64,000 bases of DNA from Lytechinus pictus (lineage: Eukaryota). The stretch lies in the NCBI RefSeq assembly GCF_037042905.1, contig NC_087245.1:35156001-35220000 (forward strand). Reading direction: 5' to 3'. The stretch's first letter is position 1. Each line of letters begins with the position of its first letter. Under the pieces are notes generated by a model that was not told the DNA's origin, did no database searches, and saw only the letters and a list, made by a program, of their open reading frames with translations. Shown one piece after another: positions 2,538 to 6,565 of the stretch. The position numbers and the translations under genes are program-made.

Positions 2538-3225
2538 ACCAAAGGTCAAGATTTTGAATTTCCAAGATAATTTTGAAGTTTTCAGTATAGTATCATGTTA
2601 AAAATGAATAGGGGTAATAAATCTGGTAATGCCGAATACCCTTCGATTTTTGGCAGTACACACTGGCATGACTGAGACCAAAAAGTAATATTAAACTGTG
2701 TGAGAATGGCTATTGTATATCACTCATGATATGAAAGGAATAACAAGTTTCTTAGTTATAAGGTGAAACATTATTTGAGGTCGGCGAACTTAGGATTTTA
2801 TTCTCATATAAATTATTATTTTTTAATTATCATTCATCTTACATGTAATTGTTTTCAAAGTTGTAACTGCTGCTATATAGAATTTCCCAATCATGGGAAC
2901 GTACAAATGAGAACCTCGTAATATTCTATTTTATTTTAAGTAATGAGTATATTTGACGCTGTGACATATTGACATTGTGCCACTTTTTCCGAATAAAAAC
3001 TTTTGAACAATTTGAATTGTAGTGAGGCTGTGCAGTGTGCATGTAGAAAGCTGAATGGTTGATCTACCGGATATAAATATCAAGATTTGTGGATTCTCGT
3101 ACTTTTATCATTTATAGGGGCAAATGAATTGCTTATAATCACATATTAAAAAACAACAACAAACCTATTTACCTTACATAAAATTCATGCATTTTATATA
3201 GAAGAGAAGATATCAATATATGTAA

Positions 3226-4600
3226 TACCTTGGTCATATTTGCTCTACGGCGCACAGTGGGCCAGAATGAGTTGAAAGTGCGCCAAAATTATATTCCGAG
3301 TTAGATTTTTAGTTTAACATGTTGCTTTTGGGTAATTTTGGGCGTAGAATCGACTGAACATAATCTAAAGCCGATATGACGTCACCTTGATACCAAATTT
3401 TGATTGGCTGCTTAAAACCTATTTGTGAAAATACAAATTACGCTAAACAATGTGTGGTATATAAATTTTGTGTTATGTGCTACTTTAAGATTGACCAGAG
3501 TGAATGTTGGTTTATGTTTCTCACATGCCTAAAAGGTGTGTATGATATGCCGAAAATAATTTTATGTCATCAAAATGATCATTAATTAGATTTATAAAAA
3601 AAAAAATTAAAATATGAAAAATATTAACAGCGCTTTATCAAGCTGTGTTGACTTGTGTAAAACGCAGAGTATATAACACCACGAATGTATCACTATGAAG
3701 AGGGTTTTTGGCTGAAATTATTCTACAAGTAAGTTTAACTCTAGAAGAGTTGTGGGTATAGCCCTTATTTGCGTTAGCAACCTTTTTTTTTGTTTATTAT
3801 GCCCGGAATTCATGTCATTTTCATGGAATGGAAGGGGAATCGTCCTCGCCGTGCAAAAGCGAACGGCAATGTACACCCATACGGTGCGCTACGATGACTG
3901 CGCGGTATAAAAATGACCGTTTTTTAACAGGTTTTTGGGGGTGTTGTGTGATGACAACGGGCAAAAACGAGCAGCTAAACTTGGTATCGATTTAAAGCTT
4001 AGACATCGGGAAAAATGATGCTTATAGAATTTAGACGGAAATCCACGGAAATCTAAACGTTTATAATGTAAATGCAAAAAACATGGATTTTCAGCCTATT
4101 TCGAGGAATAATCATCCTATAAACCGCCTGAAAGGTGTCTTTTATCTACTTTGAACCCTTTACTACGAAAAAAGAATATTTCAGGATTATGTTGGAGCCA
4201 TTTCAGATTCCTACATGAAAAACCTCCTGTGAAATGGCCTGTTTTTCAACTAGGTTATCATATACGCGAAATTTCGCAAAATGTCACATTTTACGATTTG
4301 AGGTAGGAAATTAACAACCTTTATGCAAATTCCGGAATGAAATATTTTGCTGAAGTATTCTTCAAAGTGTTGTCTTTCAGCTGGGCATAACAAAAATTAA
4401 AAATCTGAAATTGCCCAAAATGACTTTTGGCGCACTTTTGTTTCGCCCCGGCCCACTTTGCGGCGGCCGTACGGAGAGTCAAAAACAGCCGTTTTAACAT
4501 TTTTTGTTCCAACTATATATAGGTGGTTTGCATTAGAATTAATAAAACGGCTGTTTTCGACTCGCCGTACGGCCGCCGTAGAGCAAATGTGACCAAGGTA
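3226..4600. mobile_element. PIF/Harbinger-like (Tourist-type) MITE of ~160 bp, split by a nested 1.2-kb insertion
   Basis: Removing 3253-4465 restores a ~57-bp TIR (TACCTTGGTCAyATTTGCTCTACGGCGGCCGTACGG...CAGCCGTTTT) matching 4544-4600. TAA flanks both ends (3223-3225, 4601-4603). Confidence 0.85.
3253..4460. mobile_element. Non-autonomous Transib/RAG-like DNA transposon (1208 bp)
   Basis: Ends are CACAGTGGGCC ... GGCCCACTTTG, with 36-bp bipartite TIRs. The 5-bp GC-rich TSD CGGCG is at 3248-3252 and 4461-4465. No transposase ORF inside. Confidence 0.8.
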
Positions 4601-4779
4601 TAAATCCCTGATGACTATTCTTTTGATTGTTTTATGATTGCAGGATTGCACCGCGTATGCTTCTGTCTTCTTTGATGAAGAGATAGATGAACCCCTTATG
4701 AATCATCAAAGTCTGAACCCCCATCAGACAACCAGGCAGCATCTATGCATTATGCAGGCAACATCATCCATACACCATT

Positions 4780-6565
4780 CAGACGGCATCCAATTAAGCA
4801 CCATACCATGCAAGCAACCAGACATCGTCAAGGCACTACACCAAGCAACCAGACATCATCCAGGCACCAAACCAAGCAACTAGACAGCATCCAGGTACCA
4901 TACCAAGCAACCGGACATCATCCAGGCACCATACCAAACAACCAGACAGCATCCAAGTACCATACCAAACAACCAGACAGTATCAAGGCTGCGCACCAAG
5001 CAACGAGACATCATCCAGGCACCACACTAAGCAAACAGACATCATCCAAGCACCATACCAAGTAACTAGACAGCATCCAGGTACCATACCAAGCAACCGG
5101 ACATCATCCAGCCACCAGTACACCAAGCAACCAGACAGCATCCAGGCAAGCAACCAGACATCATCCAGGCATCACACCAAGCAACTAGACAGAATCCAGA
5201 TACCACACCTAGCAACCATACAGCATCCAGGCACCACACCAAGCAACCGAACATCATCCAGGCACCACACCAAGCAACCGGACAGCAAGCAACCGGACAT
5301 CATCCAGGCACCACACCAAGCAACCGGACATCATCCAGGCACCACTAAGCAACCAGACATCATCCAGGCACCACACCAAGCAACCAGACATCATCCAGGC
5401 GCCACACCAAGCAGTGTTTTAAGAGTTGCGATTGATTGCAACTCTTTATGCTATGGGCCCCAGACATCATCCAGGCACCACACCAGGCACCACACTAAGC
5501 ACACAAACAGCATCCAGGTACCATACCAAGCAACCAGACATCATCCAGGTACCACACCAAGCAACTAGACAGCATCCAGGCACCATACCAAGCAACCAGA
5601 CAGCATCCAGGTACCATACCAAGCAACTAGACAGAATCCAGATACCACACCTAGCAACCATACAGCATCCAGGCACCACACCAAGCAACCGGACATCATC
5701 CAGGCACCACACCAAGCAACCGGACATCATCCAGGCACCACACCAAGCAACCAGACATCATCCAGGCACCACACCAAGCAACCGGACATCATCCAGGCAA
5801 CACACCAAGCAACCAGACAACATCCAGGTACCATACCAAGCAACCAGACATCAGCCAGGCACCACACCAAGCAACTAGACAGAATCCAGATACCACACCT
5901 AGCAACCATACAGCATCCAGGCACCACACCAAGCAACCGGACATCAGCCAGGCACCACACTAAGCAACCAGACATCATCAAAGCACCACACCAAGCAACC
6001 AGACATCATCCAGGCACCACACCAAGCAACCGGACATCATCCAGGCACCACAACAAGCAACCAGACATCATCCAGGCACCACACCAAGCAACCAGACATC
6101 ATCCAGGCACCACACCAAGCAACCATACGTCATCCAGGCGCCACACCAAGCAGTGTTTTAAGAGTTGCGATTGATTGCAACTCTTTATGCTATGGGCCCC
6201 AGACATCATCCAGGCACCACACCAGGCACCACACTAAGCACACAGACAGCATCCAGGTACCATACCAAGCAACCAGACATCATCCAGGTACCACACCAAG
6301 CAACTAGACAGCATCCAGGCACCATACCAAGCAACCAGACAGCATCCAGGTACCATACCAAGCAACTAGACAGAATCCAGATACCACACCTAGCAACCGG
6401 ACATCATCCAGGCACCACACCAAGCAACCCAACAACATCCAGGTACCATACCAAGCAACTAGATAGAATCCAGATACCACACCTAGCAACCAGACACCAC
6501 ACCAAGCAATCAGACAGCATCTAGGCACCACAACAAGCAACCAGACAGCATCAGGCACCACATCA
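4780..6565. repeat. 31-bp minisatellite (consensus ACCAGACATCATCCAGGCACCACACCAAGCA) with a 739-bp higher-order duplication
   Basis: More than 50 imperfect units. An identical non-unit insert occurs at ~5412 and ~6151, 739 bp apart. Confidence 0.95.

Follow-up and report, generated by a model that had tools for sequence, protein, structure and literature searches.

The closest described systems to the locus analyzed here are Transib transposons of the sea urchin S. purpuratus. TransibN1_SP is a non-autonomous Transib with CGNCG duplications and 36-bp ends that include an 11-bp gap (Kapitonov and Jurka 2005, PMC1131882, Fig. S4g). The autonomous Transib1_SP is given there with a CGGCG duplication and a 676-aa transposase (PMC1131882). 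Section 9 of the same paper treats RSS-like ends as a general feature of Transib, usually of the 23 kind but with a few 12/23 families as well, and describes ends of about 38 bp in which nonamer positions 5-6 of the 23 register are AA (PMC1131882). Cleavage by Transib is reported to need the CAC heptamer and to proceed by nick and hairpin, with 5-bp duplications resulting from insertion (PMC4840297).

We analyzed a stretch of 64,000 nucleotides of Lytechinus pictus DNA (the window). An earlier note on it had placed an element with CAC ends and a GC-rich 5-bp duplication among the non-autonomous members of the RAG1-related Transib superfamily, and homology to coding Transibs upheld this assignment. 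We are highly confident that this 1.2-kb element is a gene-less Transib present in several hundred copies, likely an internal deletion product and likely moved in trans by a Transib transposase. Its features are collected in Table 1.

Table 1. Features of the N1 element and its host MITE, in window coordinates
Feature	Position	Strand	Remarks
Non-autonomous Transib element ("N1")	3253..4460	-	1,208 bp, without coding remnant; strand is that of the parental transposase
5' terminal inverted repeat	4425..4460	-	Heptamer, GGCC, 11-bp spacer, AAAGTGCGCCAAAA; third base privately mutated; 5' denotes the end that precedes the transposase in the coding relative
3' terminal inverted repeat	3253..3288	+	CACAGTG heptamer, GGCC, 11-bp spacer, AAAGTGCGCCAAAA
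Target site duplication CGGCG, left copy	3248..3252	+	5 bp
Target site duplication CGGCG, right copy	4461..4465	+	5 bp
Segment similar to the 5' end of the C11 coding Transib relics	3788..4460	-	69-75% identical
Segment similar to non-coding DNA that precedes the C11 transposase coding region by about 300 bp	3635..3731	-	About 75% identical
Segment similar to the C11 relics at their 3' end, past the transposase stop	3253..3519	-	74-78% identical
Host MITE, outer part of left arm	3227..3252	.	AT just before (3225-3226)
Host MITE, remainder including intact right arm	4466..4599	.	AT just after (4600-4601)

The 36-bp end pattern matched the window twice, at the two terminal inverted repeats and once on each strand, and gave no match in 100 shuffles. 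The letters and positions quoted for these ends in the earlier note were therefore accurate, and the left CACAGTG heptamer, the 12-spaced ACAAAAGTG (6/9) and the 23-spaced CCAAAA were all located where it had put them. Two of its descriptions held in part. The right heptamer does read CAAAGTG; as a family feature this failed, since it is a private mutation at position 4458 and the N1 family has CACAGTG at both ends (97-100% per position in 121 N1 ends). About 99% of the contig depth at this position in three DNA runs carries the family letter. The 11-bp spacer, described as unconserved, does differ between ends and between families, but within N1 it is fixed for each end, with 83-100% agreement per position. 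Contigs from DNA runs of other individuals break at repeats, and none bridges the insertion site in the window.

A search of the genome (812 Mb) with the end pattern gave 699 exact and 942 near matches and none with the reversed control; the near matches correspond to roughly 470 elements. The ends divide into the 1.2-kb N1 family, to which, counted by eye, 72 of the first 100 exact ends listed belong, and a 2.0-kb sister family that by pairwise search has the end blocks in common with N1 and little else. Target duplications were tabulated across copies, a check that the earlier note had proposed. An exact 5-bp duplication was found in 25 of 31 copies of a first set and in 58 of 74 complete copies; 67 of the 74 agree with at most one mismatch and 51 have the form CGNCG. 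The 16 copies in which the exact duplication is absent include seven that are off by more than one base. Duplications of 4, 6, 7, 9 or 10 bp occur in none of the 74, and matches at 2 bp and 8 bp are explained by the CG..CG form and by GCC runs. The 74 were kept from 78 complete elements in the fetched loci, eight of which had been chosen for sitting in the MITE; the four rows left out are two segmental duplicates, one probable duplicate and L097, which was left out wrongly.

In an alignment of 46 N1 copies the mean difference from the majority row is 4.4%, and the window copy differs by 3.2%. Two copies at unrelated sites (L010 on C5 and L011 on C14) show one difference in 1,231 bases, and such near-identity points to a very recent jump. 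An older subfamily, with spacers of its own, was also seen (L095, C2:57459379-57460553, and L094); it is 73-76% identical over the element length. A literature search, which covered papers and not Repbase or Dfam, found no description of N1 in Lytechinus pictus.

The ends had been thought to form a possible 12/23 pair. When any gap from 0 to 30 was allowed, the spacer measured 11 in 699 of 709 ends. Two motifs are conserved at both ends of both abundant families, AAAGTG (positions 23-28) and CCAAAA (positions 31-36), the latter, which lies in the 23 register, at 93-100%. A second conserved block at differing distances on the two ends was not found, the register being the same at both. Judged by these positions, the family has no 12/23 antibody-signal pattern, and its two ends are spaced alike. 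The proposed pairing thus falls, and the published ends of TransibN1_SP are symmetric as well. The 12/23 positions did prove conserved across copies, but at both ends alike, so that they provide no pairing, and the caution in the earlier note that weak nonamer matches could be chance was well placed. The right end of the window element scores 6/9 against the nonamer in both the 12 and the 23 register, and the left end 3/9 and 5/9, respectively.

A Transib with functionally unequal ends, 12-like at the 5' end and 23-like at the 3' end, could be imagined from the end types. The five 5'-end types all score 5-6/9 in the 12 register and the six 3'-end types 1-5/9, the C11 3' end has lost AAA at this place, full-length relatives of the transposase carry a GRP motif in their N-terminal region, and 12/23-like Transib families, a few insect ones, are in print (PMC1131882). 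The same data speak more strongly for equality: the 11-bp gap leaves no difference in spacer length, CCAAAA and the 12-register AAAGTG stand at both ends of both abundant families, and the supposed 12 end of the window element scores as well in the 23 register. TransibN1_SP moreover carries the same 5/9 motif at each end, a single base away from the 6/9 motif here (PMC1131882). We consider this reading unlikely, because the end types are related by descent and are not independent samples, and because no spacer length differs. Similarly improbable is the joint claim built upon it, namely that a sea-urchin lineage of single-gene deuterostome Transibs is still jumping and that its GRP-motif transposase would read the two ends unequally, the 5' ends keeping a 12-register nonamer-like motif and the 3' ends letting it drift, as an early step toward the 12/23 rule.

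The window element, which we continue to regard as a Transib with equally spaced ends, is inserted in a MITE of about 160 bp when empty, for which 1,084 candidates were found across the genome. Uninterrupted copies at 29 loci (L233-L261; 30 rows, one locus having given two) contain a single CGGCG at the insertion place. When the element and one CGGCG were removed from the window, the MITE matched one uninterrupted copy at 162 of 164 positions. This confirmed the duplication that the earlier note had read from the nesting. The host MITE (window 3225-4601) has AT on both sides, within a TWATWA context in 28 of 30 rows; a TA duplication combined with a shorter MITE end fits these flanks equally well.

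The same CGGCG of the MITE arm is joined by 13 ends in the genome (L262-L274), of which 11 are independent when three segmental duplicates are counted once. About one hit would be expected, given 72 CGNCG in the 64 kb of the window and the number of MITE candidates, and by this rough hand estimate the MITE site is favored about tenfold over expectation. The recurrence of one junction could also be explained if the MITE and its insert moved as one unit, the element reaching the site as MITE cargo. This is very unlikely: the 13 junctions involve both N1 and the 2.0-kb sister family and both orientations, and outer flanks are common to only the three segmental duplicates. Five MITE-nested N1 copies are scattered in the tree (90-97% alike) and do not form one clade with one orientation, and one of them has a near-identical twin outside any MITE.

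Independent insertion, our preferred explanation of these junctions, is accompanied by several similar observations. Three other repeats have been hit repeatedly at one site: one is tRNA-derived by eye, with no ARAGORN call, one is unnamed and one has GCC runs (L035, L097, L099; L033, L110, L071; L008, L050, L045, L062, L067, L011, L053). Such repeated hits fit a GC-rich target within an AT-rich genome. Tandem elements were also seen, with two copies split by only one common 5-bp duplication at L007:1501-3945 and two copies 8 bp apart at L006:268-2723 and L067:562-3786. Tandem copies are to be expected if the 5-bp duplication itself serves as a new target.

Some features of the neighborhood were recorded as well. 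An open frame that follows an AG lies at window 4644-4883, its start some 40 bp beyond the right edge of the MITE. Window 4616-4750 is covered at a depth of 11-21 in one RNA run. The frame may be an exon, which would put the element in an intron. A tandem array of a 31-bp repeat occupies window 4705-6550 and contains a 26-bp palindrome-like insert at 5421-5446 and again at 6160-6185.

Coding relatives were found through a search for the rare spacers. The C11 relics are four duplicated copies of 12-17 kb in which N1-type ends surround a frameshifted transposase and nested repeats. Window element and relics are 69-78% identical in DNA at both ends, with E values down to 1e-106; at the 5' end the identity is 69-75% over 520-705 columns, and the best of 50 shuffled controls reached 33.7 bits. 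In frameshifted pieces the relics span residues 6-697 of a full-length relative of 697 aa. The distance from the end of the transposase gene to the 3' terminus is about 400-600 bp, which leaves no room for RAG2L. The proposal to look between paired ends for Transib or RAG1L/RAG2L frames was therefore answered in its first part, by a broken Transib gene, and not in its second, the RAG1L loci examined having no such ends. The window element seems to have arisen by internal deletion from a related coding Transib. By alignment, it lies antisense relative to the parental transposase, and it has retained no coding remnant. The direct parent of N1 was not found among these copies; the closest coding relative, the C11 type, is only 69-78% identical. 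In addition, a 120-bp piece of DNA immediately flanking the C11 relics at their 5' end (L161:150-269) is 82% identical to window 4117-4236.

Parts of the 2-kb sister family show about 90% identity to a second type of transposase, on C15, C8, C7 and C17, and the family keeps the last 51 codons of the C15-type enzyme (88%). The C15 fragment aligns with HzTransib at E 3.9e-83 over 411 residues and with amphioxus RAG1L at E 5.8e-5, and its D, D and E motifs are kept. A database search gave 1,119 relatives of this fragment at E < 1e-30, among them proteins of about 700 aa at 59-71%; named entries match at 97% (Lytechinus pictus) and 63% (S. purpuratus). The L. pictus entry, which is truncated to 321 aa, has an intact zinc motif that is absent from the C15 fragment. 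The full-length relatives have about 250 more N-terminal residues than HzTransib. Pfam offered no model for these transposase pieces, and a search of the ESM Atlas returned no named Transib cluster.

Frameshifts, truncations or insertions of other repeats disrupt the local coding copies. The assembly yielded no intact transposase: all 23 N-terminal candidates scored as broken or truncated, and none of the C-terminal candidates scored (102 of 102 in one search and 92 of 169 in another) was intact. In two DNA runs from other samples, contigs without gaps extend past the truncation point of the C15 fragment; they agree with it at about 97.5%, showing 27-28 differences across 1.1-1.2 kb. Among the 23 of 28 differences listed, read by eye, there were no stops. 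An intact transposase allele elsewhere is plausible. One RNA run, with another species label, covered the transposase at a depth of 0-6, the first mates falling mostly on the minus strand. In most stranded libraries this would mean antisense RNA.

Other candidate partners were rejected. Candidate autonomous partners included copies of 4-8 kb with these ends. The long frames in them gave matches to Tc1, LINE endonuclease and GIY-YIG families, and the copies were therefore taken as nested insertions. Twenty loci with unpaired ends or odd spacers yielded nothing but non-coding copies in decay and two older subfamilies. Chapaev/CMC elements make a 4-bp target duplication, which was seen in none of the 74 copies, and 14 loci with DUF1280, which we take to be a Chapaev marker, had no such ends within 1.5 kb.

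The earlier suggestion of a RAG-like (RAG1L/RAG2L) transposon, which would make N1 a non-autonomous derivative of a ProtoRAG-like element moved by one of the genome's RAG1L proteins, is extremely improbable: the genome does hold 17 matches to the RAG1 profile (PF12940), some with 600-aa open frames, and RAGL elements likewise have CAC ends and 5-bp duplications (PMC7204232, PMC10629977), but neither N1-type ends nor homology to the element occurs near the RAG1 matches (about 9 kb on each side in eight regions, with a smaller flank covered at C182 and its duplicate C233), positions 8-11 of the ends read GGCC where RAGL ends have an A-rich stretch at 8-10 (TR2), and the coding relative is one Transib gene that leaves no place for RAG2L, which largely refutes the suggestion. 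One of the RAG1L loci (L127/L128, G000:C4:15674907-15683400) combines an open frame of 624 aa with convergent frames on the opposite strand that look like kelch; it is probably a RAG1L-RAG2L pair, with RAG2L called by eye. A second RAG1L type is present on C182/C233 and C10.

Movement of N1 by a Transib transposase could be envisaged as follows. The enzyme would bind two ends of equal spacing and cut and paste the element in trans; by analogy with characterized Transib, it would cut at the heptamer by nick and hairpin and insert with a 5-bp stagger. Insertion here was into the GC-rich MITE arm, with duplication of CGGCG. Which transposase moved N1 we infer from the common ends. The likeliest recent mobilizer would be the C15/C8/C7-type transposase, the putative parent of the 2-kb sister family, as N1 and the sister family share end blocks and the C11 3' end has drifted. 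It would be supplied by an intact copy lacking from the assembly. The contigs of other samples that continue past the C15 truncation point speak against a dead family, and the near-identity of L010 and L011 points to recent movement despite the broken copies of the assembly.

For sea urchins, RSS-like Transib ends, these same end blocks and the CGNCG target were already published in 2005, and taken by itself the element matters little. What is added is the link to coding relics, the repeated independent hits at GC-rich repeat sites and the signs of very recent movement. Should an intact allele exist in the population, it would represent a deuterostome Transib with a nonamer-binding-like N-terminus, comparable to HzTransib and RAG1. 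Only a demonstrated asymmetry of the ends would make the element notable.

Compared with known systems, the window element is most like TransibN1_SP, whose two conserved end blocks it matches at 25 of 25 positions in a comparison that covered the ends. Neither element has coding capacity, and the length is mostly about 0.9 kb there and 1.2 kb here. TransibN1_SP has one 11-bp spacer sequence for its two ends, whereas that of the window element differs between ends, and the hosts are S. purpuratus and Lytechinus pictus, respectively. Transib1_SP resembles the C11 relics in its single transposase of about 680-700 aa and the window locus in its CGGCG duplication, a comparison by description; it is autonomous, in contrast to the broken local coding copies. 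The AA expected of Transib ends in the 23 register is present in the CCAAAA of both ends of the window family.

HzTransib (PDB 6PQN series) agrees with the local family in the catalytic motifs found over the aligned part of the C15 fragment, and in the invariant CAC and 5-bp duplications (PMC4840297). It is described as lacking most of the nonamer-binding region and as having ends that are little nonamer-like (PMC4840297), whereas the local ends carry a second conserved block. With the RAGL elements (ProtoRAG, RAGL-A and RAGL-B) the window family has in common the CAC heptamer and a GC-rich 5-bp duplication (PMC10629977, PMC7204232, PMC4411706). It differs from them in having no RAG1L-RAG2L pair, no A-rich stretch after the heptamer and no asymmetry of spacer length such as that of PflRAGL-A.
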